Position numbers and translations under genes: made by a program. A model generated the notes under the pieces. The model was given only the letters and a program-made list of their open reading frames with translations. It was not told where the DNA came from and made no database searches. Below are positions 13,455-54,949 of a DNA stretch of 64,000 nt, one piece after another. This DNA is from Candidatus Bathyarchaeota archaeon. GTDB lineage: Archaea; Thermoproteota; Bathyarchaeia; Bathyarchaeales; DTEX01. Location of the stretch: the NCBI GenBank assembly GCA_963714275.1, contig CAVQNT010000006.1, forward strand, positions 160,001 to 224,000. The letters run 5' to 3'. How positions within the stretch are numbered: the first letter of the stretch is position 1; each line of letters opens with the position of its first letter.

Positions 13455-15682
13455 ATGACTGCGAAGATTGCTGAGCTTAACATATGACCAGAGGCTGGCA
13501 GCCTTACGAGAAACCAAGATGCGGCAGACGCTGGAGAAGCAGGAGGCACTCCGCGTCATGGATCAAGATGACCATGGCAGAATCATGCCTCCGCCAGAGT
13601 TGAGGGACATAACCGAATACATGGGTCCGTCTGGCGAGATGGTGAGGGACGCAAAACTGAACAACTTCAAGCCTAAAAGCAACCATCCGACTGGAGGTTT
13701 CTTCGGCGCCAAAGCGTGCGGCGAAAACTTCAGGCTTTTCTTGAACGCTCATCCCGTGTACATTAACCCCATGAGTTCTCTGGCAGGAGGCTACATGGCT
13801 TACTTCATGGGTTACCGAAATCCAGGCTGGCCGCCTGAGTTTGATTTCTCGAATCTACAGGACGAACAAAAGAAATATGGCGTTTATACTGGGATCGGTG
13901 CGACCCAGCATTTCTGCCAAGACATGGTTATCGGCTTTAATCTGGGGTGGGGAGGCTTGCTCAAAAAAATCCGTCATTACCGTAAGACTAACCCCAAATC
14001 TGCGGATTTTTACGACGGTCTAGAACAAGTCATTCTTGGGACTCAAGACTGGATGAGCCGTCATGTTGAAGCTGCTAAGGGTATGGCTGTTGACGAAAAT
14101 AATCCTACTTTACGCAGGAATTTAGAGGAGATGGCTGAAATCAATAAGCGGCTGCTGACCGAGCCTCCTAGAACATTCCGTGAAGCCTGTCAGTGGACAG
14201 TATGGTACCAGATGATTGCCCGCATGTACAACGGCAGTGGTTCGATGGGGCAGATTGACGATTGGCTTAAATCCTTTTATGAACGGGAGTCCGCAGCTGG
14301 CACCCTCACTGATGAAGAGGCAATCTTTCACCTTGCTTGCCTGTTACTCAACGATACGCAGTATTACCAGCTGGGGGGACCCGACGCTGAAGGCAAAGAC
14401 ACAACGAACAAAGTATCTTTTCTCGTTTTAGAAGCGGTTCACAGGCTGAAAGCCCCAGCAAACATAGGCATACGGGTTTTTGATGGTCTCGACCCTGAGC
14501 TGCTCAGTAGAAGCGTCGAAATCATGTTTGAAGATAAAACAGGATTCCCCAAGTTCTTGGGAGACAAAGGAATTGTTGAGGGCTTCGAAAAAAACGGTTA
14601 TTCGGTGCAGGTTGCCCGTCAACGTATCTATTCGGGTTGCCACTGGTTCGCCATCCCAGGGCGAGAGTACACTTTAAACGACTGCGTAAAAATTAACTTC
14701 GCAACAGTTTTTGAGGTTGCCTTTTGGGACATGATGAACAACACCGACATTGAGCCCTGCGTCGACGAGCTGTGGCATAGTTTTGAGAAGCATCTGCGTC
14801 GGGCTGTTGAGGTCACCAAGGAAGGGCTTGACTTTCACATGAAACACATGCATCAGGTCTTCCCTGAGCTGGTTTTGGACTTGCTGTGTTATGTCACGAT
14901 AGAGAAAGGCTTGGACGCATCCAACGGCGGCGTAGAATATTACAACCTGTGCATAGATGGGTCAGGTCTTGCCACCGTCGCCGATTCTTTCGCCGCGGAC
15001 TGAACAAAGGGTCGAAAAAGAGAACCGATTAACGTGGCATCAGCTCGCTGAACACATGAAAAACGACTACAAGGATGCGGAGAATACACGGTTAATGCTG
15101 AGCAGCATTCCACGGTACGGTCGCGGAGGCACACGGGCGGACGAATGGGCTGTCCGCATAGTCCAAGCCTTCACGCGGTTCGCAAAGTTGAAGCCGACCC
15201 CAGCGGGATTCAACGTGATTCCTGGGCTGTTTTCGTGGGCATCAATGATTTCGATGGGTCAAACAGTCGGGGCTACACCAAATGGTCGACATGCTTACGC
15301 TCCTATTTCGCATGGGGCTAGTCCTGACCCAGGATTTCTGAAAGGTGGTAACGCTCCTACTGCCATGGCTGTGGCTGTTGCGTCTGTCCAGTGTGGTTAT
15401 GGGAACACTGCTCCGTTGCAGACTGACATGGACCCAGGCTTAGCCAGCGGCGATGAAGGGGTCGCAAAGGTTGAGGCTCTGATAAGGGGGCACTTTGAAT
15501 TGGGCGGAACCATGATTAACATGAACGTCATCGACAAGAAACAGGTTCTCGAAGCCCACCAAGATCCGTCCAAATATCCTAACCTGATTGTGCGCGTGAC
15601 AGGCTTCAGCGCATACTTCGCAAGCCTTTCCAAGAACCTTAGGCAATTAGTCGTGGACAGGATATTGGCTGAAGAAACATAA
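13455..15682 (+). CDS. Glycyl radical enzyme (PFL superfamily) of unknown specificity, indel near 15000
   Basis: C-terminal IVRVTGFS glycyl loop, GATPNGR, Cys loop YSGCHW; adjacent activase. Confidence 0.92.
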
Positions 15683-19243: not shown

Positions 19244-20321
19244 TTGGATAGAAACTCTAATCTACAGCGCACTGTATTTTTGGTTGGCGGTCATGTTTTG
19301 AGGATTAAGTGGAAAAGCGGAGTTCAGGTCGAGTATGGAAACGTAAAGATTATGCTTGACCCTCAAAGCAACCGTCTCAGCCACTGTTTAGTTTTTGTGA
19401 GCCACGGTCACTTCGACCATTCAACTGCGTTCAGAATGGACGAGATGCCCAAATACTCTTCGCAACAAACGTTCGACCTAATCGCTAGCTTCGGAATACA
19501 ACCCGAAAACTGGCAACCGCTGACAGTAGGTAAGAAGGTCGTTTTTGACGATGTTGAGGTTGTTCCCTACAACTCCGGTCACGTCTTAGGCTCCTACGAG
19601 TTTGACGTTAGGACGCCTGAAGGAAACGTGCTTTTCACGGGAGACTTCAACACCGAATACACGAAGACCATGAAACCCGCAGAGCCCATACAATGCGACA
19701 TACTCGTTTTGGAAGCAACCTTTGGCTCTCCAAGACTTCGTTTTTCCCCCTGAAGATGTAATAGGCAAGGAAATGGTCGACTGGGCAAAGAAGGTCATAA
19801 AATCAGGAAAAATCCCAACTTTCCAAGCTGACCCCCTTGGAAACGCGCAGGAAATAATAGGCATATTCAGAGAATCAGGCATTCCTGTTGTTACGCACTG
19901 GAAGGTCTCAAGGATTAACCGTATCTACGAAGCCCACGGGCACAAGCTTGATTATGTGGACACAAAAACGAATGAAGCCCAAGAAATCACGGACTCAGGC
20001 AACCTCATCTATGTGACGCCTAAGCAGCTAGACCTTCAGGATCATCCCGAGTTTGTTCCTGCATTGGTTTCTGGATGGGCGTTGTGGGCTCGGAAAACAG
20101 CTTTCCCGCTGAGTGACCATGCCGATTTTCCGAGGTTGATAAAGTTTGTTGAAGATTGCCGACCTAAAACTGTGCTTACGTGCCACGGAAGCAGGTTCAG
20201 CGACACCCTTGCCCACTATATTGAAAAGAAACTCGGAATCAGGGCGTACCCAATCGACCTTATTCCTACAAGCCTTCGTTCCGAGAACCCTAAACACCAA
20301 GTTCAGGAAACTCTTAAATGA
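19244..20321 (+). CDS. Beta-CASP-like MBL-fold nuclease, indel near 19735
   Basis: SHGHFDH, SGHVLGS, FTGDF, LEATFG, LSDHADF, TCHG. Confidence 0.85.
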
Positions 20322-26088: not shown

Positions 26089-27882
26089 ATGAAGCAACTG
26101 ATCCACAACGGCATCCTAGTCCCGCATTATGAGTGGAAAAAAATTCGTATCAAGATTAAAGGTTCAGAGGTGGAGTTGGATCCACAACAGGAAGAGATGG
26201 CTGTCGCGTGGGTCAGAAAACTTGGAACCGACTACGTCAATGATAAAGTCTTTGTTAAAAACTTCTTCAACGACTTCTGTAAAGCGTTGGGTTTAAAAGA
26301 AACACTTGACCCAGGAGTATTTGACTTCTCAACCATCATAGACTATGTTGAAAGTGAAAAAGCCAAGAATCTCAGCCTTTCAAAAACGGAAAAGAAGCAG
26401 CTAACGGAAGAACGAAAAAAACAGAGAGAAGCCTTCAGGGAAAAATATGGGTACGCCACCGTTGATGGCGTCAGAACCGAGATTAGTAACTACACTGCTG
26501 AGCCATCAAGCATCTTCATGGGCAGAGGTAAACATCCTTTGCGTGGCAGCTGGAAACAGGGACCCCGAGAGCAAGACATTGAACTTAACCTTTCTTCTGA
26601 CGCTCCGCAACTTTCGAGTAATTGGAAACGTATTTGGCAACCTGAAGTCATGTGGGTTGCTAGATGGATGGACGTGCTGTCACAAAGAATAAAGTATGTT
26701 TGGCTTGCTGAAAACAGTACGCTTAAACAGGCGAAAGAGATAGGGAAGTTCGAGAAGGCGAAGGAGCTTCAAAGAAACATCGAACGCATAAAGAACCGCA
26801 TAGCGGAAAACTTGAACTCAACGGATCTTAAACGGAGAAAAACAGCCACAGTCTGTTTCTTGATTGACAAGCTTAAAATCAGGGTAGGCGACGAGAAAGA
26901 CCCTGACGAAGCAGACACGGTTGGAGCCTCAACCCTCAGACCTGAACACATCTACTTTAACGATGACGGGAAAGTGACCTTCAATTTCCTCGGCAAGGAT
27001 TCTGTTCCCCACGTTTTCATGGAGGAACTTCCAGAAAACGTCGTGAGAAACCTTAAAGAATTTTCTTCGAACACAAAATCCACACTTTTTAACGGCGTTG
27101 ATTCAAGCCGCGTGAGCGAGTTTCTCGGCGAGGTTGTTCACGGTCTTTCAGCGAAGGTTTTCCGAACATATTATGCTTCACATGCTGTTGAAGGTATGCT
27201 TGAAGATGCACCTGTCAAAGTCGAAAATCCAGATTATGCCAAAAGGTACACAGCAACAATGGCAAACCTTGAGGCTGCAAAAACCTGCAATCACAAGCGC
27301 ACCATTCCTAAGACGTGGGAATCCTCATTACAGAAGCAAGAAGAACGACACAAGAGTATTGTTGACAAGTCCAAGATTTCTCAAGCGAAGTTTCAGCAAC
27401 AAGTAAAGGACCTTGAACAAAAGATTGAAAACCTCTTAAAAAAGGAAGAGGAACGACTAAACACTTTACAGCAAAACCAAAGACTACTTCAGAATCAATT
27501 GAACACAGAAGCAGCACAAAGCAAGATAAACTCAAATCTAACTAAACGAATTGCCAAACAAAAGAAGGCTGTTACTGAACAAAGGGCACGCATTAAAAGA
27601 ATTAGAGAAAGGCATGTTGAACAGGTCAAGAAGAGAAAGGAAAGAGATGATGAAAGACAAAAACGTGAGAAAGATGCGATTGAGAAGTCGAATCTTCAAA
27701 TCGACGCTAAAAGGCAGACTCGAAATTTCAACCTCGGCACTTCTCTCAAGAGCTACATTGACCCGCGCATCTACTACGACTGGGGCAAAAAAGTAGACTA
27801 CGACTGGAAACTCTATTACCCGAAGGCGCTCCAAAAAAAGTTCTCATGGGTCGAAACAGATTCTGCGAAAAAACCTGATTGA
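26089..27882 (+). CDS. top1: DNA topoisomerase IB (eukaryote-like)
   Basis: GRGKHPLRG, IRVGDEKD, FLGKDS, AKVFRTY, CNH, long coiled-coil linker, SKSYIDPR-type catalytic Tyr (LKSYIDPR). Confidence 0.95.
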   Translation: MKQLIHNGILVPHYEWKKIRIKIKGSEVELDPQQEEMAVAWVRKLGTDYVNDKVFVKNFFNDFCKALGLKETLDPGVFDFSTIIDYVESEKAKNLSLSKTEKKQLTEERKKQREAFREKYGYATVDGVRTEISNYTAEPSSIFMGRGKHPLRGSWKQGPREQDIELNLSSDAPQLSSNWKRIWQPEVMWVARWMDVLSQRIKYVWLAENSTLKQAKEIGKFEKAKELQRNIERIKNRIAENLNSTDLKRRKTATVCFLIDKLKIRVGDEKDPDEADTVGASTLRPEHIYFNDDGKVTFNFLGKDSVPHVFMEELPENVVRNLKEFSSNTKSTLFNGVDSSRVSEFLGEVVHGLSAKVFRTYYASHAVEGMLEDAPVKVENPDYAKRYTATMANLEAAKTCNHKRTIPKTWESSLQKQEERHKSIVDKSKISQAKFQQQVKDLEQKIENLLKKEEERLNTLQQNQRLLQNQLNTEAAQSKINSNLTKRIAKQKKAVTEQRARIKRIRERHVEQVKKRKERDDERQKREKDAIEKSNLQIDAKRQTRNFNLGTSLKSYIDPRIYYDWGKKVDYDWKLYYPKALQKKFSWVETDSAKKPD

Positions 27883-29252: not shown

Positions 29253-29387
29253 ACTTTCGCTGTTGCCTGTTTTACCGTAGAAGACTTACGGATGATAATA
29301 TTTATAACTAGTACGTTAACTTAGTAGTATTATAAATACTAGTGGTTCATTTATTAGTTATTACACAAAAACAACCCCAATACATGG

Positions 29388-30572
29388 GTGATTATCAAAA
29401 TGACATCTAAAAATGAAACAGAAAGCAATAGGCTTCAATACTTAGAGGAATTGAGTCCACAAACGAGACAAACGTACAAGACATCACTAAGAGTTTTCTT
29501 TAAACACATTTATGGTGAAGGAGTACTCGAGGACTTAGTACAAAAGTACTTCAGTGAGCAAAGGGATTATGGCAATGACTTAGGTTCATTTTTGGCAAGT
29601 GTGAATGGAAGACCACCAAAATCAGTTAACCTCTACTTGAGTACAGTGAAGACATTCTTCGTTGAAAATGACATTGAGTTACCAGAGAAATATTGGCGTA
29701 GAGTACGTGGAAGGGTTAAAGGAAATAAAGCCAGAACTAAACTTGGAATCCCAACAAATGAACAACTGAAAAAGATTGTCACTTATCTGAACATTGAAGG
29801 TAAGGCACTATTCCTAACTTTAGCGTCCAGTGGAATGAGAATTGGGGAGTGCCTAAAATTGCAACTCAGTGACATTCACCTTGATGAGAGTCCAGTACGT
29901 ATTGAATTGCGGGGGGAGACAACAAAGTCTGGTGATGGACGTACAACATTCATTTCAACTGAGGCAAAGGAACTCATGGTTGAATACCTTAAACATAGGG
30001 ACAGATTGCTAGCAACATCAATCAAACGTAGTGCAAGTGAGAAGTCAGCAGATGACCAAAGTTATTCCCAATGGATGATGGTGAAGCACGTTTTCTTTGG
30101 GGTTCAGCACTTGAGAAATCGGGCTTTAATGAGAAGGATGTGACCACAGGCTATTATGTGTTCCACACACATGTCTTGAGGAAATTCTTTAGGACAAGGA
30201 TGGGTAATGTTATCCCTGTTGATATTGTTGAAGAATTGTTGGGTCATGAAGGATACTTGACAAATGAGTACAGACACCACATCACTGAGGAGCTAGCAAG
30301 TTCTATGAGCAAGGAGAGATTGCCTTAATGGTCTTGGAGCTGCCGTTGAGCAAATACAAACAGAAGTGGACATCAAAGTGAACTAAAAAATTGAGGGTGT
30401 ACTAGACCTTCTAGAACAACAGTTAGAGAATGCTGAGTTAAGGAAACGGATTACCAGACTTGAAGAGGCAGTTGAACAGAACTTCTATAAAGCTGTTGAA
30501 TACGAGGAAGGTAAACGGATGAATATAATGGAAAATGGAATGGAAGCCACACATGAAGCAAGGAGGGAATGA
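29388..30572 (+). CDS. Tyrosine recombinase/integrase 1 with C-terminal coiled coil; indels
   Basis: SSGMRIGE, TTKSG, HVLRKFF, LLGH, EGYLTNEYR; coiled-coil tail continues in other frames to about 30572. Confidence 0.9.
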
Positions 30573-30573
30573 G

Positions 30574-31191
30574 ATGGTATGGGACAGTAGTTTAGGACAT
30601 AGAAGCGTAGTCAATGAGGTAACACGATTCTGTGGTTTCAATGAACTGGAAAACCTTTTAGTCTCAATTGAAAGTGATGTGAAACCATCATACATTAAGC
30701 CAACGAAACTGTTGGTATTGTGCTTATTCAAATCTGGCGGAAGAATCAATGAAGTATTGAGCCTAAATGCTAGGCAATTTGAAACAACAAATGATTTCCT
30801 ATTCATTCATAATATGCCTGTCCTTAAGAAGAGGTCAACAAGACAAATAGATGTCTTTCGTGATGTACCCATACTAATGACAGAGGAGTTAACGGATAAA
30901 TTACTAAGTCTTTTACCTAGTGATGGAAGGTTATTTGACTTTCAGTACAACAAAGCCTATAAACTGATTGCAAGTTTGGAAGTTCCACCAGATGAGACAC
31001 ATGGTGATGGTTTCCACATAGGTTTAGAGGCTGAGAGAGCAAGACAGTTGATAAGAGACCATGGATTTGATGCACTTCTATTAAAACAGTTCTTTAACAT
31101 GAGCCGAATCGACACACTCCTGACTTACGCCAACCCAACCTTTGAGGCTGTCAAAACAAAGATGTTAAGACAGACTAGTACAAAAATATAG
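30574..31191 (+). CDS. Tyrosine recombinase 2, catalytic domain only
   Basis: KSGGRINEVLSL, PVLKKR, LLTYA; an HxxR motif (WFPHRFR) reads in an alternate frame at about 31008-31028. Confidence 0.75.
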   Translation: MVWDSSLGHRSVVNEVTRFCGFNELENLLVSIESDVKPSYIKPTKLLVLCLFKSGGRINEVLSLNARQFETTNDFLFIHNMPVLKKRSTRQIDVFRDVPILMTEELTDKLLSLLPSDGRLFDFQYNKAYKLIASLEVPPDETHGDGFHIGLEAERARQLIRDHGFDALLLKQFFNMSRIDTLLTYANPTFEAVKTKMLRQTSTKI

Positions 31192-36207: not shown

Positions 36208-36882
36208 TCAACTTTGCTCTTCGGGCGGGGGTCTTCTAAAGTAATAACCCATTTTTTGTCTTAACAATTCTCTCGTTTCTTGTGATAATTGAAGTACTAT
36301 AGAGCTTAAGATGGTTTTATCCATGGGTTCAGCCTTTGCAATGTTTTGACAGTTAATTCTATTTATTGTCTTAAAACTAATCATTCTGTGTCGAGTAGTT
36401 ATTGTGAATTGTTCTTTAGTTTCTTCAAATTCGGCAATTGAGTTTTTGGGTCAATTATTTCTTTATACTTCAATTTTTTTCCGAGAGTGTATTCTGGAAA
36501 TAGCGGATTGCCTTCATATATAAAATAGGTTCTCTGCCCGAATTCTTTTTTGTTTAGGTAGTCAGCCTTCTCAGTATCTGTGAGTTTGTTCCATGTTTTT
36601 GGATGAGTAAAATTCTTGCTCATGCCTTCTTTATTCAAAGAAGTCAAATCATTTGAGAGAAAAGGATTATCGAAAAGTGCTGTATTGACTTCCTCCAAAG
36701 GTGTGAGAATTAGTGTCCTATTTCCAATATCACAGCAAGGGTCTAGTACAACTGAATACTGAGAATTTTCAATTTTAAACCTACACGGCTAAATGGTTTT
36801 TCAATATTTGGAACTATTGATTATAGCCTTTTACAACATCGCCAAATCTTAATCTGTTTTCAATTAAGGGACTGTAAAACAT
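36208..36882 (-). CDS. Third gene of the TIGR04255 operon, possibly PemK/MazF-like; split by indels
   Basis: MFYSPLIENRLRFGDVVKGY...SVVLDPCCDI...LILTPL...YFIYE...MISFKTINRI...LQLSQETRELLRQKMGYYFRRPP reconstructed across frames. Confidence 0.6.
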
Positions 36883-36891
36883 AATTGTAAC

Positions 36892-37119
36892 CTATTCTGA
36901 AGGAAGTTCGTTGATGTCCACAGAGGTTCCCTGCGTCTTTCTATCTTTCAGTGACCTGAAGTCTTCGTTGATTGCTACTTCCTCTATGCCGACAAATTTA
37001 CCATCCAAGGTTAACTTAACCAGAATAAGGTACTTGTCAAAATTACATAGCTTATGCGTGAATTGGCTTTCTGAATTTCCCCCTGTTACAGTTTTTGGTT
37101 TTCTGATTATTTCTGTCAT
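36892..37119 (-). CDS. 75 aa hypothetical protein, middle gene of the operon
   Basis: Intact ORF spaced 6 and 9 nt from its neighbours. Confidence 0.65.
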   Translation of the reverse strand: MTEIIRKPKTVTGGNSESQFTHKLCNFDKYLILVKLTLDGKFVGIEEVAINEDFRSLKDRKTQGTSVDINELPSE

Positions 37120-37125
37120 TTAATT

Positions 37126-37888
37126 TCACTTAAGCGTGCCAGTTCTCATATATTGCTTTACGGGTTCTTTTACGATGTTGAAATACTCATAATGAATTAT
37201 TTGATAAAGTTCGTCAGTAATCTGAAGATAGTCTTTGGAGGCTATATTAGTTTCGAAGCCATCAAAATCCAAAACTATAGCGTCTTTGCCCTGAGCATTT
37301 TTTATCTTTGTTTCTTGATAGATTAAGTCTATGGCTGCTCCTAGTACAATTTATAAACAAATATGAATCGGATACCTCGTTCATTGAGAATCTATCGGTT
37401 GGAAAAGATGAATTGTAAAGTCGTTTCAGAGTATCGTTATCACTGGTTGGTAATGGGCACTCATCAATATAACGTAAACCTATACGGCTTATTATGGGTA
37501 CATTAATAGTACTTAGGAAATTTCCGATAACGAACTCAATTGTATCTCTAAATTTTAGTTGTTCATTTGGGTTATTATAGGATTTATGCTTCTTTGAAAT
37601 AATACTAACGGAGTTAGTTTGTACCCTGATTTCGATTTCTTCTTTTGAAAAAAAAGTCCAAATTTTTGTTACGTCTGAAGGATTTAATTCTTCATCGAAG
37701 TCTTTCTTTCCAGCACGAAGTCGCTCACTTAGAAGCAAGTGCCGTCGCAAAACCAATTTAGAATCAGGGAATCTGGAGATTATTTTCTCCTGAAATTCTC
37801 CTATTTTTCCTTCTACTGAAAACAAATCTGGAAATTTAATCTCGAAAGCAACTTCTTTAATTGTTGGGTAAACGAAAATTTCGCTCAT
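37126..37888 (-). CDS. TIGR04255-family protein, indel near 37300
   Basis: PTIKEVAFEIKFP, RIGLRYID, and LDFDG in the shifted frame. Confidence 0.8.
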
Positions 37889-38019
37889 TTAAATCCCTCA
37901 GTGTTCCTCAATTTATTGTTTCGAAGGTAACATATAGTTTTTACGTATGAGGCACGTCGTGCTATAGGTGAATTAACCTTATTATGCTTTACATTATTTC
38001 TTCCTAATAAATCCAAGGC

Positions 38020-38236
38020 TTAAACATCTGCTTGTCTAGGAAACCACGAATCCCTTTCTCCTCTTAGACATTTCGCAAGTAAAATAGCCTCTTCATCAAT
38101 CAAAGTCTCAAGTGTTTGCCTTTTACCTACCTTTATTCTTGGAATATCAATAATTGTCTCAAAGAAACCATCCAAACTTTTCATGAGTTCTCTTGTTTTG
38201 GTTTCATTCAAGTATTCTCTCTTGCCCTTTCTTGTC
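38020..38236 (-). pseudogene. 3' remnant of a stand-alone (casposase-like) Cas1
   Basis: RKGKREYLNETKTRELM...IPRIKVGKRQTLETLIDEEAILLAKCLRGERDSWFPR recalled as the C-terminus of TACK solo Cas1 proteins; frame closed upstream. From memory, not searched. Confidence 0.55.
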
Positions 38237-38626: not shown

Positions 38627-38893
38627 TCATTCTCTTGTTGCCTCTTCAAGATTATTTCTTGTTGCCTCTTCAAAGTTCTTTTTCTGCTTTTCCTCTTGTC
38701 TCATCAGTTCCATTAATTTCACAAGATAAATATTCGGACTATTAGTTCGGTAGTAAGATATCTGATAGTCTGTAGAAAACCCTAATAATTGACAAAAAAT
38801 CAAGTGACTATTATAATTCCGTTGAGTTAACTTAACACATATATTTATTACTGCCCCTGATGATTTTTTTTCAGCCGGATGACGAGAAGGCAT
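38627..38893 (-). CDS. Hypothetical protein or fragment with a 24-nt-period repeat at its 3' end
   Basis: EEATRNNL-EEATRE. Confidence 0.3.
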   Translation of the reverse strand: MPSRHPAEKKSSGAVINICVKLTQRNYNSHLIFCQLLGFSTDYQISYYRTNSPNIYLVKLMELMRQEEKQKKNFEEATRNNLEEATRE

Positions 38894-41129: not shown

Positions 41130-41193
41130 CCAACATCCAATTTTTTAAGGTTCATTACTCTTAAATGCATCAACAAAAGTTTCCTATTGTGAC

Positions 41194-42751
41194 ATGGTGG
41201 GCGACCTTTTGAAAAACAGTGTCATAACAACCAACGAAATGCGTGCTTTGGAAGTGAACGCGGAATATTTCGGGGTCTCGAAGCTGCAGCTAATGGAAAA
41301 CGCTGGAAGAAACGTAGCCACAGAAATATCGTCTCGGTTTAAACCTAAAGAAACGAAGGTCGCAATCTTCTGCGGTTTAGGCGGAAATGGCGGAGATGGC
41401 TTCGTTGCAGCTCGACACCTTGCCTGCTTAGGCTTCAAAGTCGAAGTGTATCTGGCAGGAAAATCGGTCCAGATAGTTGATGTCAACGCCCAAAAAAATT
41501 GGGAAGCACTAACGCCCCTAAAAGAATCTGTTCCCTTGCATGAAATCTACGATTCTTCTCTTTTTACAGAGGTCAAGGCTGACGTTCTGGTCGACGCTCT
41601 TCTCGGGACAGGCTTAAAGGGACCTCCTAGACCACCAATCTCGAGCCTCATAAAACTGCTGAACGAAGCAAAGGGATTCCGTGTAGCTGTTGACATCCCA
41701 AGTGGGCTTGAGTCTGACTCCGGCAAAGTTTTGGGTGAAGCTGTAAAAGTGGACCTAACAATCACCTTTCATAAAGCAAAACTTGGACTATCTGAGGCTA
41801 AAAAGTACACTGGCGAGCTGGTAATTAGTGGAATAGGAATTCCTGAAGAGATTGAGAAATTCGCTGGTCCCGGCGACGTCATGGTAATCATGGAACCGAG
41901 ACCTTCAGAGTCTCATAAAGGGGATTTTGGTAGGCTTCTCGTGATTGGCGGAAGTGAGACATACTCAGGCGCCACAGTCTTCGTAGCGTTAGTCTGCTTT
42001 AAGAACAGGTATAGATTTGGCTTACATTGCTGCGCCACGTGAAACAGCTTATGCAATCTCTTCTATGTCGCCTGATCTCATTACGCTGAAGCTAGACGGG
42101 GACTACTTGAATACTGAAAATTTATCCGTTGTGAGGCGTGACCTTGAAAAGGCGACAGCTGTTGTCTTAGGTCCCGGTTTAGGGCTACACAAGGAAACTC
42201 AGGATGCGGTGAAAGAAATTTTGAAGGTTATCGAGGCGAAGAAGATACCTTTATTGTTGGACGCTGACGCCCTGAAAGCCTTCGCAGAATTCAGACATAG
42301 ACTGGAAACGCCGACTGTTTTGACACCTCACGCTGGCGAATACGAGATTCTTACAAAAACCAAGCTTCCCCAAAGCACACACGGAAGAATCGAGCTCGTC
42401 AAGCAAGCAGCCCAAGATCTTGACGCGGTTATTTTGTTGAAGTCGCATGTGGACATAATCACAGACGGGTATAGAGTGAATCTGAATTTCACGGGAAACC
42501 CAGGCATGACAGTTGGCGGAACAGGCGACGTGTTATCAGGCATTGTGGGAGCTTTTCTCGCCCGTGGCGTTGCGCCGTTCGAGGCTGCTGTAGCTGGAGC
42601 ATTCATTAATGGTGCAGCAGGCGATTTCGTGAAGGCGGAGAAAGGGCATCACATGGTTGCTTCGGACCTGCTTAGCTGGATACCTAAAGTTATGGACAAT
42701 CCTATGTGCCATTTGGAACTTAAGAAGGGCTGTGTTCCGAAAGACTTTTGA
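41194..42751 (+). CDS. nnr: Bifunctional NAD(P)H-hydrate epimerase/dehydratase, indels near 41975-42015
   Basis: LMENAG, GGNGGDG, DIPSG, HKGDFG, GPGLG, LTPHAGE, GGTGDVLSG. Confidence 0.93.
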
Positions 42752-52669: not shown

Positions 52670-54949
52670 GTGCGCTTGAAGTTCAAAGTTAGAGGCATTG
52701 TTCAAGGCGTAGGCTTCAGACCGTTCATTTACCGTACCGCAGTTAGGAACCGTTTAAGCGGATATGTTCGGAACAAGGGCGACGCAGGAGTCGAAATACT
52801 AGTTGAAGGGCACCCAAAAAACGTCGAAAACTTCATAGAAGACCTGAAGAACAAAAAGCCTCCTTTAGCACAAATTTACGAAATCATCACGGAGCAAAAG
52901 AACGGAAACAACCAGCACCAAAGCTTCTCGATATTGAAAAGCTCCAATGAAGCTGAGCTTTCAGGCTCCGTTATCCCGCCGGACATTGCGGTTTGTGACC
53001 AATGCCTAGAGGATCTCCGTGACCCGAATGACAAGCGGCACGACTATTTTTTCATTACCTGCACGGATTGTGGTCCAAGATACACGATCATCGAAAGCCT
53101 TCCCTATGACCGCGTAAACACCAAAATGCGCGATTTCACAATTTGTGGCTTCTGCGAAAAGGAATACACGGACCCTTCGAACCGAAGGTTCCACGCCCAA
53201 ACCGTTGCCTGCCCAAAGTGCGGACCCAAAGCCTACTTAATAACAAACACTGGAGAACCAACCGTATACAAAGATCCAATACGTGAAGCAGGAAAACTAG
53301 TTTCAGAAGGATCAATTGTCGCAATCAAAGGATACGGGGGCTTCCATGTTGCTGCTTCAGCAGTCATGAGTGAACCTTTAGTTCAGCTGAGGACGACTAA
53401 ACATCGAAGCCAAAAACCCTTTGCATTAATGGCGCCAAGCCTTGAAGCTATAGAAACGTTCGTTGAAGTAAACGAAACGGAGAAGGAACTGTTAAAGTCT
53501 TACTCGCGTCCGATTGTTCTATTAAGGAAATCCCGATATTATTTTCTTTCTGACTTGGTTGCTCCGGGTCTACATAATGTCGGCGTGATGTTGCCTTACA
53601 CCGGTCTTCACTACATGCTTTTTGACTGGGCGAACGAGTCAGCTTTTGTTATGACCAGTGCTAACCCGCCTAATGAACCCATAATCAAGGACGACAATGA
53701 AGCCCTAAGGCACTCAGCAAGGTTGTGGACTATTTTCTTTTTCACAATAGGCAAATCTCACATCGCTGCGACGATTCTGTTGTTCGAGTTCACGGCGAAA
53801 ATTCCGTCTTTGTTAGACGCTCAAGAGGATATGCGCCTGCACCCATAGTTCTAAAGAACGAAAGCAGACATTGCGTGGTAGGATTAGGTGGCGAACTCAA
53901 CAACACTGCCTGCGTCCTCTTAGGAGACAAGGCGTTCATTTCCCAACACGTGGGCGACGTAGAAAACCTTGAAACCAAGGAATTCATGAAGGAATCGGTT
54001 AAACATCTGGTCCATCTTACAAACAGCAAGGTCGAAACCGTAGCTTGCGATCTGCACCCGAAGTTCACGACAACAATGCTTGCCCGCGAACTCGCTCACG
54101 AAAACGGTTGGCTTATGGTTCAGGTTCAGCACCATCATGCTCACGTGGCAGCGTTAATGGCTGAGCACAATGTCAACGAGATTGTCGGCATCTGCTGCGA
54201 CGGTTACGGCTACGGTTTAGATGGAGAAGCATGGGGTGGTGAAATCCTTTACTGCAATCAGGGAGCTGCCGGGCTTTAAAAGAGTGGCTCATCTTCAAAA
54301 ACAACCTTTAGTCGGCGGAGACTTGGCGACCCGTTATCCTCTGCGGATGGCTGCTGGAATGTTACAGGATGAACCAGATTTGGAGAACTGGCTTTTTACG
54401 AAACAGGATCTTTTTCCTCACGGTGAGAAGGAGGTTGAGGTTATCCTGAAACAATTGAAAAATAGGAAAGACATGATTTTGACTAGCAGTTGTGGAAGAG
54501 TGCTTGACGCTGTTGCAGCTGTTCTGGGGGTGTGTCACGAACGCACCTACGAAGGTGAACCAGCAATGAAACTTGAATCCTTAGCTATTAAAAGTAAAAC
54601 CCCCCTAAGAATCGAGCTAAAAATTGAAGGCAATACGCTAAACACGACAATCATGGTTCAGGAAATATTCAAAAATAGAGAAAAAGTGGCTAAGGAAGAT
54701 TTAGCCCGCGCAGCCTATGAATACCTAGCTGAAGGGTTAGCTGTCTTAGCCGTCGAAAAAGCCCGAGAGAAAGGCTTAAAGCATGTTGGTTTCACAGGCG
54801 GCGTCGCATGCAACGAGGTCATCTCTTCCACGATGCGAAAGACCGTTGAGTCTTCAGGTTTAAAATTCCTAGTTCACGAGGTTGTTCCGCCGGGCGATGG
54901 AGGAACATCGTTCGGTCAGGCTGCGGTTGCGGGTTTTCAAAGCCCTTAG
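52670..54949 (+). CDS. hypF: Carbamoyltransferase HypF, indels near 53715 and 54270
   Basis: GIVQGVGFRPF, Zn fingers, RRFHAQ, KGYGGFH, QHHHAH, PPGDGG. Confidence 0.96.

Follow-up and report, generated by a model that had tools for sequence, protein, structure and literature searches.

A conserved three-gene cassette headed by a TIGR04255 protein in a bathyarchaeal genome looks like an undescribed toxin-antitoxin-like module

Three closely packed genes in the genome of a Candidatus Bathyarchaeota archaeon look like a toxin-antitoxin-like module of an undescribed kind, with a new branch of the MazF fold and a new third subunit. They lie on the minus strand at 36208-37888 of the window, by which is meant the whole stretch of 64,000 nucleotides (nt) that was analysed (assembly GCA_963714275.1, contig CAVQNT010000006.1, positions 160,001 to 224,000 of the forward strand); in order of transcription they encode a protein of the family TIGR04255, a protein of 75 amino acids (aa) and a third protein of about 225 aa. 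Directly seen are the gene order and its conservation, the predicted folds, the spread over domains of life and mobile elements, the absence from profile libraries, and the interchange of third genes having two toxin-type folds. The reading developed here, that of a horizontally mobile tripartite toxin-antitoxin or abortive-infection module, is in our judgement as apt to be right as wrong. The components in the window are these:

37129..37888, minus strand: gene 1, TIGR04255 family protein, about 253 aa when its two frames are joined; frame A 37888->37265, frame B 37350->37129
36895..37119, minus strand: gene 2, 75 aa, intact open reading frame (ORF); conserved small middle-gene family, candidate antitoxin or adaptor
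36211..36882, minus strand: gene 3, protein of predicted MazF/CcdB fold enlarged by about 110 inserted aa; four frame pieces, which joined give about 225-234 aa
37889..38019, minus strand: leader of the trio, non-coding; TATA-like AAAACTATATG at 37941-37931, Shine-Dalgarno-like GAGGGA at 37899-37894

Gaps of 6 nt (37120-37125) and 9 nt (36883-36891) separate the genes, so that both the coordinates and the spacing given by an earlier, sequence-only reading of the window are reproduced. The first 208 codons of gene 1 (37888->37265) match the NCBIfam model TIGR04255 with E 8.6e-15 and 55.2 bits over positions 5-163 of its 252; this is above the curated cut-off of 30 bits and places the protein in the family. 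The motifs RIGLRYIDECPLP and VLDFDGF occur in it. Gene 3 starts with the ATG at 36882, ends at a stop codon at 36208-36210 and begins MFYSP...RFGDVVKGY; the motifs GDVV, VVLDPCCD, LQLS and YFRR, from whose layout the sequence-only reading had argued, are all present.

A scan of one genome per species with a 16-row alignment of gene 3 gave 14 loci. One of these, on a Zixibacteria contig, begins at the third gene; the other 13, seven archaeal and six bacterial, include upstream DNA, and all 13 carry the same three genes in the same order and on the same strand: TIGR04255, then a gene of about 83 aa, then one of about 210 aa. The archaeal carriers are Methanophagales, Bathyarchaeia, a Methanosarcina barkeri metagenome-assembled genome (MAG), Methanogaster, Methanophagaceae, an uncultured archaeon and Promethearchaeum syntrophicum MK-D1; the bacterial loci belong to KSB1, two Zixibacteria, Eubacteriales, Phycisphaerae, Neomarinimicrobiota and a Firmicutes MAG. 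The same order recurs in genomes G013 and G082. The first of these, from the same taxonomic family as the window, has the operon intact, with a 256-aa TIGR04255 protein (88.6 bits), then 83 aa, then 211 aa; the TIGR04255 protein of locus L003, used below as an intact query, scores 88.6 bits across profile positions 2-249 of 252. The trio is also found on two of two IMG/VR viral contigs.

Metagenomes tell the same story. Among 45 loci, examined with hidden Markov models made from our own alignments, the small gene is present in 37 of the 38 with at least 300 nt of upstream sequence, and TIGR04255 in 34 of the 35 with at least 420 nt. One exception, L082, retains only a fragment; the other, L078, also has a shortened third gene and is clearly a relic. 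In L078 (1-2150) a transposase-like gene, IS91-like by eye, has removed TIGR04255 and the start of the small gene. Across the 13 genome trios the first gap ranges from -14 to +11 nt and the second from 4 to 13 nt; the three proteins diverge in step with one another (r = 0.91), and mean pairwise identity is 55.7% in TIGR04255, 46.9% in gene 3 and 44.6% in the small protein. As the same three families sit together in dozens of unrelated contigs, the clustering is far beyond chance, and the observations support a conserved operon-like unit. The sequence-only reading had let its proposal stand or fall with conservation of the trio, which the counts from genomes, viral contigs and metagenomes bear out.

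The cassette also keeps what lies ahead of it. About 100 nt of non-coding sequence, which include a TATA-like box and a strong ribosome-binding site, are retained as a leader in seven archaeal and bacterial carriers (L006:4814-4976, L017:4814-4976, L014:321-483, L015:2440-2602, L008:4811-4973, L016:4814-4976 and L012:4817-4979), with a mean column identity of 63% over the 163 nt compared and the pattern ..CGTGAGCAAAAGTTTATATG..TGGCAAATCA..ATGAAATGTATGGAACAAGGAGAGG..AAAAAGGAGGTTTTAAGC.ATG. The window has a similar leader (37889-37960), which would act as a promoter; the cassette appears to move with its own promoter and 5' untranslated region. Scanning for sigma-70 promoters and terminators gave matches at chance level only, the sigma-70 model not being relevant for an archaeon.

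Distribution is sporadic. Searched against 1.84 billion proteins, a 129-aa piece of gene 3 yields 192 representatives at E<=1e-3, mostly of 200-235 aa; no fused forms were found among relatives of 420-2000 aa, which is weak evidence. The third protein of L003 has no tblastn match among plasmids and phages. Gene 3 is detected in four of 61 related genomes, two of the matches being weak (G026, E 1e-4; G047, E 1.5e-3). The match in G026 (locus L004) is taken as spurious, as it falls inside a 522-aa ORF that by eye resembles a sugar kinase. TIGR04255 itself is rare in the window's phylum, occurring in four of 401 sampled genomes, the window's own included, in agreement with the earlier description of the family as sporadic. 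Of the other three genomes, one carries the window-type trio next to an IS240-type transposase (L021) and one has two different genes downstream (L020); the contig of the third is too short to give context.

The genomic settings of the trio vary as well. An integrase or transposase adjoins it in L017, L018, L021 and L024, the last of these placing it between a tail-fibre adaptor gene and a prophage integrase. Restriction-modification or defence-type genes adjoin it or lie within about 2 kb in L007 (DNA methylase and DUF2130), L012 (methylase), L016 (DUF4062 and Schlafen AlbA_2) and L019 (an Eco57I-type enzyme). Such variety of insertion contexts points to a small self-contained cassette, often on mobile elements. 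On co-occurrence with defence islands, a check proposed by the sequence-only reading, there are thus four loci with defence-type genes nearby and five carriers whose neighbours are housekeeping genes only.

For the fold of gene 3, the homologue P0002, 49% identical to the window piece, was modelled with AlphaFold2 from a 122-sequence alignment, and the model is of high quality (predicted local distance difference test, pLDDT, 95.4; predicted template modelling score, pTM, 0.90). When it was compared by VIA-align with 48,161 chains, the top 11 matches were all MazF, CcdB or Kid, with Z from 10.2 to 7.1 and 91-113 residues aligned: MazF-mt3 (8zws_A) came first at Z 10.2, with a root-mean-square deviation of 2.8 over 98 of 105 residues, and others were Staphylococcus aureus MazF (4mzm_A, Z 9.9), CcdB (1vub_A, Z 9.1) and Kid (1m1f_A, Z 7.7). 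Toxins of type III systems follow the MazF rows (CptN, Z 5.4; two ToxN entries, 3.6 and 3.3; lower down AbiQ, 2.8), and unrelated chains reach Z <=3.0. A Foldseek search of the PDB with the same model returned many MazF chains at probability 0.3-0.7 and nothing at E<=1e-3. The model thus assigns to gene 3 a core fold of MazF/CcdB/Kid type. The matches span model residues 9-227 yet align only about 100 residues; about 110 residues, comprising helices at 73-116 and hairpins, would therefore be an insert. The guess of a PemK/MazF-like protein made from the window's letters accordingly holds at the level of predicted fold and does not hold at the level of sequence family, where no profile matches. 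In P0002 numbering, G14, D15, C56, N89, F177 and K218 are invariant in the family, and R12, P54, C55, K203, R212, R216, E229 and D230 nearly so. The ESM Atlas yielded 'hypothetical protein' clusters only, and no structure.

Gene 2 fits the position of an antitoxin. A small gene of about 83 aa stands 4-13 nt upstream of gene 3 in all 13 genome loci, and in the window the 75-aa gene stands 9 nt upstream, which is the layout of type II toxin-antitoxin systems. The window protein aligns with the middle genes of the other loci, the family consensus being ..YPF.KY.I.VKLT..NEF.GI.EV.INKDF....DVDEFY.E. It has no match in Pfam, NCBIfam, PADLOC or PHROGs. Complex prediction for genes 2 and 3 (211 aa with a 99-row alignment, 83 aa with a 19-row alignment), run without controls, gave scores of 0.00, 0.36 and 0.00, the mark being 0.32, which speaks neither for nor against binding.

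Further evidence comes from plasmids, where TIGR04255 heads units of related design. The TIGR04255 protein of L003 has no match there; only the more typical sequence of L020 found members, namely 13 plasmid records with a TIGR04255 gene, in 10 of which the context was read. In all 10, TIGR04255 is followed by two ORFs on the same strand, some of them missing from the plasmid's gene table. The middle ORF is of Xre helix-turn-helix (HTH) type in six contexts, mostly by Pfam matches below the cut-offs, and in three of the six the record itself annotates it as HTH or 'transcriptional regulator'; alignment of the small-protein family with one of these plasmid HTH proteins by hhalign gave no match (E 0.57). 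The third ORF (263-312 aa) carries near its N terminus, in eight contexts, the motif W.QG[DC]...[ST][QH].CD[IV], recognised by eye and by regular expression, in the same layout as RFGDV...VVLxPCC[SD]I of the window family. Aligned by hhalign, the short (window-type) and long (plasmid-type) families of third genes give E 0.0023 over 110 columns, and the register holds for the G-D, C-D/S-I, P-L, N/R-P, D-L-x-R and aromatic motifs; single long proteins against the short family score weakly (E 0.074 and 0.28). This suggests that the two families are distantly homologous. In a Thermus plasmid the third ORF is instead a HEPN protein (PF05168, E 4.2e-6, 27.4 bits against a cut-off of 22), and on one Rhizobium plasmid the partners of TIGR04255 are different again. 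Neighbours of the plasmid units include integrases, transposases, a VapC pair, DNA methylases, cas6, SLATT and Fic genes. The Thermus unit (L030; Thermus brockianus plasmid pTB1, NZ_CP016313.1 198645-206355) consists of TIGR04255, a 192-aa ORF and the HEPN ORF, the latter two unlisted in the gene table, and lies amid a VapC pair, a DNA methylase and cas6.

How would such a module work? Gene 3 would be the effector, most likely arresting growth by acting on nucleic acid, either as an RNase in the manner of MazF and Kid or, with lower probability, by poisoning gyrase as CcdB does. Gene 2 would be its cognate neutraliser, with the acidic, aromatic C-terminal tail (..DVDEFY.E) as the candidate toxin-binding part. 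The TIGR04255 protein would be a regulatory third subunit (a sensor of a ligand or nucleic acid, a scaffold or an enzyme) that sets the release of the effector. Toxicity, the neutralisation partner, the trigger and the antiviral role are what we infer; the same holds for the earlier formula of sensor or chaperone plus antitoxin plus RNase-type toxin acting in defence.

Several observations weigh against this account. In 78 of 78 locus pairs TIGR04255 is better conserved than the presumed toxin, the reverse of what is seen in many toxin-antitoxin pairs. Gene 3 has no Pfam, NCBIfam or PADLOC match at E<=1, whether the window pieces or the L003 protein are used, and a profile of 122 members run against all PDB sequences finds neither MazF nor CcdB; its link to MazF, PemK and CcdB is confined to the predicted fold. 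In that superfamily the functional residues are an Arg/Thr pair in MazF, Arg/Asp/His in Kid and C-terminal gyrase-binding residues in CcdB. The invariant set of gene 3 differs from what we take to be the catalytic set of MazF and includes a Cys for which this reading does not account. No DNA-binding domain can be recognised in the small protein. The fold matches of TIGR04255 are, as modelled, middling and mixed (best Z 8.4) and point to no single role. The link between short and long third genes has an hhalign probability of only 12.6%. Finally, housekeeping genes are the only neighbours in L006, L010, L011, L013 and L015, and the copy in the window may be dead, a point taken up below.

A different perspective dispenses with a toxin. 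That is, the trio could be a three-subunit accessory complex of mobile elements (such as a nucleic acid-binding regulator, an anti-defence factor or a maintenance factor) whose third subunit does no more than reuse the SH3-like barrel of MazF/CcdB type. Similarity of fold does not show function, and the catalytic residues of gene 3 are unverified; half of the third protein is insert without counterpart in MazF (model residues 9-225 against chains of about 105 residues); folds resembling the TATA-binding protein (TBP) often bind nucleic acid, and TBP is among the matches of TIGR04255; and the cassette has a conserved leader of its own. Several things speak for a toxin all the same: the top 11 fold matches all belong to one toxin superfamily, each with more than 90% of the target chain covered; the small gene lies directly upstream, as in operons of mazEF type; the third gene is swapped for HEPN in one variant; the Xre-type middle genes of the plasmids are typical of antitoxin-like regulators; and the sporadic distribution is tied to mobile elements. 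On balance we consider an accessory complex improbable.

The TIGR04255 protein raises a further alternative, in which the module is still a conflict system and its active enzyme is TIGR04255 itself, as effector or as a modifying antitoxin resembling those of type VII, the MazF-fold and small proteins serving it as substrate, as adaptor or for specificity. Of 1128 scored candidates, 981 are related to the L003 protein at E<=1e-3, and those that bear a name are called 'TIGR04255 family' and nothing else; no solved structure is matched by sequence. Its model (pLDDT 85, pTM 0.81) is a pseudo-duplicated alpha+beta TBP-like sheet. Over the whole length it is best matched by guanidino kinases, in their catalytic domains: McsB (8wtc_C) reaches Z 8.4 over 173 aligned residues, and arginine and taurocyamine kinases Z 7.2-7.5 over about 181, the range for the group being 173-182. 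In an alignment of 15 members, 14-22% identical to L003, P43, R137, G139, Y142 and D210 never vary and R141 and D208 hardly do; since these charged residues (R-x-G-x-R-Y and D-x-D) lie on two strands, they suggest a ligand-binding or catalytic site. TIGR04255 is, moreover, the most conserved component and the only one common to all variants, and the Thermus unit ends in a HEPN protein. HEPN toxins are usually restrained by an enzyme partner, as by MNT in type VII systems.

These signs of an enzyme are offset by others. The Z values are within a range common for unrelated arrangements; TBP (Z 7.7), S-adenosylmethionine decarboxylase (Foldseek E 5.5e-4) and the Mediator subunits Med18/20 score about equally; no enzyme family or solved structure is matched by sequence; and no nucleotide-binding motif is recognised. 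We think it unlikely that TIGR04255 plays this part.

The toxin-antitoxin reading can also be widened. TIGR04255 would then mark a large, undescribed superfamily of three-gene conflict systems found in archaea, bacteria, conjugative plasmids and proviruses, each built of a TBP-like sensor or modifier, a middle neutraliser and an exchangeable effector of RNase fold. The TBP-like subunit would sense a nucleotide or nucleic acid signal of infection, or modify its partners; the effectors would be HEPN proteins or members, short or long, of a new Cys-bearing branch of the MazF/CcdB fold; control would be exerted through a small beta-rich protein or an Xre-type regulator as the middle neutraliser; and the outcome would be defence by abortive infection, crossing the boundary between archaea and bacteria with its own promoter and leader. 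This extension is tentative, and we consider it rather doubtful as a whole.

Where would the module stand among known systems? With MazF, PemK (Kid) and CcdB, gene 3 shares the predicted core fold, an N-terminal G-D at the start of a strand and a small gene directly upstream. It differs in being about twice the size, with the insert of about 110 residues of helices and hairpins, in having invariant residues of its own, including a Cys-Cys motif PCC[SDE]I, in the larger gene (TIGR04255) that always stands in front, and in the lack of profile-level sequence similarity. Tripartite toxin-antitoxin systems include mycobacterial HigBA-SecB (TAC), paaR-paaA-parE and omega-epsilon-zeta. These likewise have three co-transcribed genes and a third protein alongside a toxin-antitoxin pair; unlike them, the trio has as its extra subunit the TBP-like double domain of TIGR04255, and its toxin family is different. 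Neither SecB-like chaperones nor HTH regulators are among the structural matches listed for TIGR04255, by which SecB is not excluded. A literature search on tripartite MazF systems gave general reviews only.

Two further comparisons concern RnlA/LsoA and the type III toxins. In RnlA, TBP-like repeats and then a HEPN RNase are fused in one chain. The TIGR04255 model matches TBP-like parts of the anti-phage toxins of RnlAB and LsoAB, namely the NRD-HEPN fragment of RnlA (7aex_A, Z 5.8, 92 residues aligned) and LsoA (5hy3_A, Z 5.6, 74 aligned), and the Thermus unit does end in HEPN; the Z values are low and non-specific, TBP-like folds being common. The parts of the trio are, however, encoded by separate genes, the window-type effector has a predicted MazF fold and not HEPN, and there is no sequence similarity. 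The type III toxins ToxN, AbiQ and CptN share with gene 3 a broad fold class, ranking below the MazF rows, but their systems depend on an antitoxin RNA made of tandem repeats and encoded ahead of the toxin gene; in the trio, protein genes fill this space, with gaps of 6 and 9 nt. No repeat array was seen within or just upstream of the trio, the sole tandem pair in the scanned stretch lying at 38633-38680, about 750 nt upstream of gene 1.

Nor does the trio correspond to a system with a name. PADLOC-DB 2.0.0 yields no family at E<=1 for any of the three L003 proteins, and Pfam, NCBIfam (apart from TIGR04255 itself) and PHROGs name none either; against PHROGs the third proteins of the trios match no family at E<=0.1 beyond two chance-level matches for P0002. 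In the full-text literature no paper mentioning TIGR04255 or any of five protein accessions was found, supplementary tables, which could list the family uncommented, being outside that search. The sequence-only reading had singled out the trio as a candidate for an undescribed system, to be dropped if it matched a named one, and within these databases and this literature it keeps that standing. A curated family without known function is now placed at the head of a three-gene module that ends in a protein of toxin fold or in HEPN. If the third protein proves toxic and can be rescued, the result is a tripartite system with a new branch of the MazF fold and a new kind of third subunit; if the module blocks viruses, it is a defence system common to methane-cycling archaea, Asgard archaea, sediment bacteria and the plasmids of well-studied bacteria. 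At about 1.7 kb, it is small enough for direct testing.

The copy in the window is broken: it has four frameshifts in 1.68 kb, one in gene 1 and three in gene 3. The remaining C-terminal part of gene 1 (37350->37129, 74 aa) is in another frame and aligns to residues 190-249 of the intact homologues, which places a single frameshift near 37340; in tblastn, residues 3-178 and 190-249 of the homologues are covered in the two frames. The pieces of gene 3 (36882-36823, about 36811-36791, 36788-36402 and 36450-36211) align in order to residues 1-20, about 25-31, 42-163 and 152-231 of P0002/P0003, the closest intact homologues, and were mapped also on the homologue of L003; the frameshifts lie near 36815, 36790 and 36440.

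Such breaks could be errors of assembly or real decay. Housekeeping genes of the window are split in the same way, at 13468-15682, 19244-20321, 41149-42748 and 52670-54949: a PFL-like glycyl-radical enzyme is broken between positions 560 and 563 of the Pfam PFL-like model; HypF is in three pieces, with HypF_C_2 broken at positions 25/27; and a beta-CASP metallo-hydrolase (nuclease) and a YjeF_N/carbohydrate-kinase NAD(P)HX repair enzyme are in two pieces each. That these genes are broken alike, in an assembly of 10 contigs and 2.64 Mb, points to indel errors, which seem to be numerous in this assembly; they affect whatever is read from ORFs in this genome. Density differs, with four breaks in 1.68 kb for the trio against about five in about 9 kb of split housekeeping genes. 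Homopolymer and sequence context do not separate the trio's frameshift sites from those in the housekeeping genes. We lean towards assembly errors as the cause of the four frameshifts, with real decay somewhat the less probable of the two.

A reading of the locus that is independent of the other alternatives follows the side of decay: here the trio would be no more than a relic without present function, its genes turned into pseudogenes inside an integrated element that is itself decaying. The four frameshifts agree with this, as do the wrecked neighbours (split integrases, a Cas1 stump and few long ORFs between 31 and 39 kb) and the two plainly degraded metagenome copies, L078 and L082. The broken glycyl-radical enzyme, HypF, beta-CASP nuclease and NAD(P)HX repair enzyme argue the other way; so do the pieces of the trio themselves, all of which are open, with 47-65% identity to their homologues and no in-frame stop, and so do the 75-aa gene and the leader, which are intact. 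The case for a relic falls a little short of even.

Whatever the state of the genes, their surroundings are those of a decayed insertion. The stretch from about 29.3 to 39.5 kb, which holds the trio, has a GC content of 33-39%, against 42-47% otherwise. Two features frame the argument:

29358..31188, plus strand: broken tyrosine-integrase fragments (three ORFs with pieces of Pfam Phage_integrase), forming the left edge of the low-GC stretch
38023..38235, minus strand: cas1 3' remnant, the last 62-68 codons or so, directly upstream of the trio and on the same strand

The integrase fragments adjoin the gene for the tRNA-modifying enzyme TiaS; no tRNA gene lies within 24-46 kb of the window. The Cas1 remnant is 66% identical (BLASTP, E 1e-26) to residues 266-326, the last 61, of an intact Cas1 of the same genome; tblastn finds residues 280-347 of 349 only and none of residues 1-279, and the NCBIfam cas1 model alone is weak on it (E 0.033). 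No CRISPR array was seen at 29-41 kb. Taken together, these observations support the view that the trio is cargo of a decayed, low-GC integrated stretch, much as in the sequence-only reading, which had it as cargo at the edge of a mobile element and just downstream of a Cas1 remnant.

The genome carries other cas1 genes and fragments, at C7:144220-145197, C4:100231-101208, C2:934181-935150, C2:354100-354612 and C9:5314-5739: two are full-length, one is split, one has internal stops and one is partial, in addition to the 68-codon stump in the window. Past that stump, an ORF that encodes a repeated EEATR peptide contains a 24-nt unit twice in tandem (38633-38680), the copies being 88% identical. 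On the other side of the low-GC stretch, a gene for a DNA topoisomerase IB of eukaryotic type (26089-27879, plus strand; Pfam Topoisom_I_N, Topoisom_I and Topo_C_assoc; E 2e-60) adjoins the genes for TiaS, prefoldin and a DUF3194 protein.

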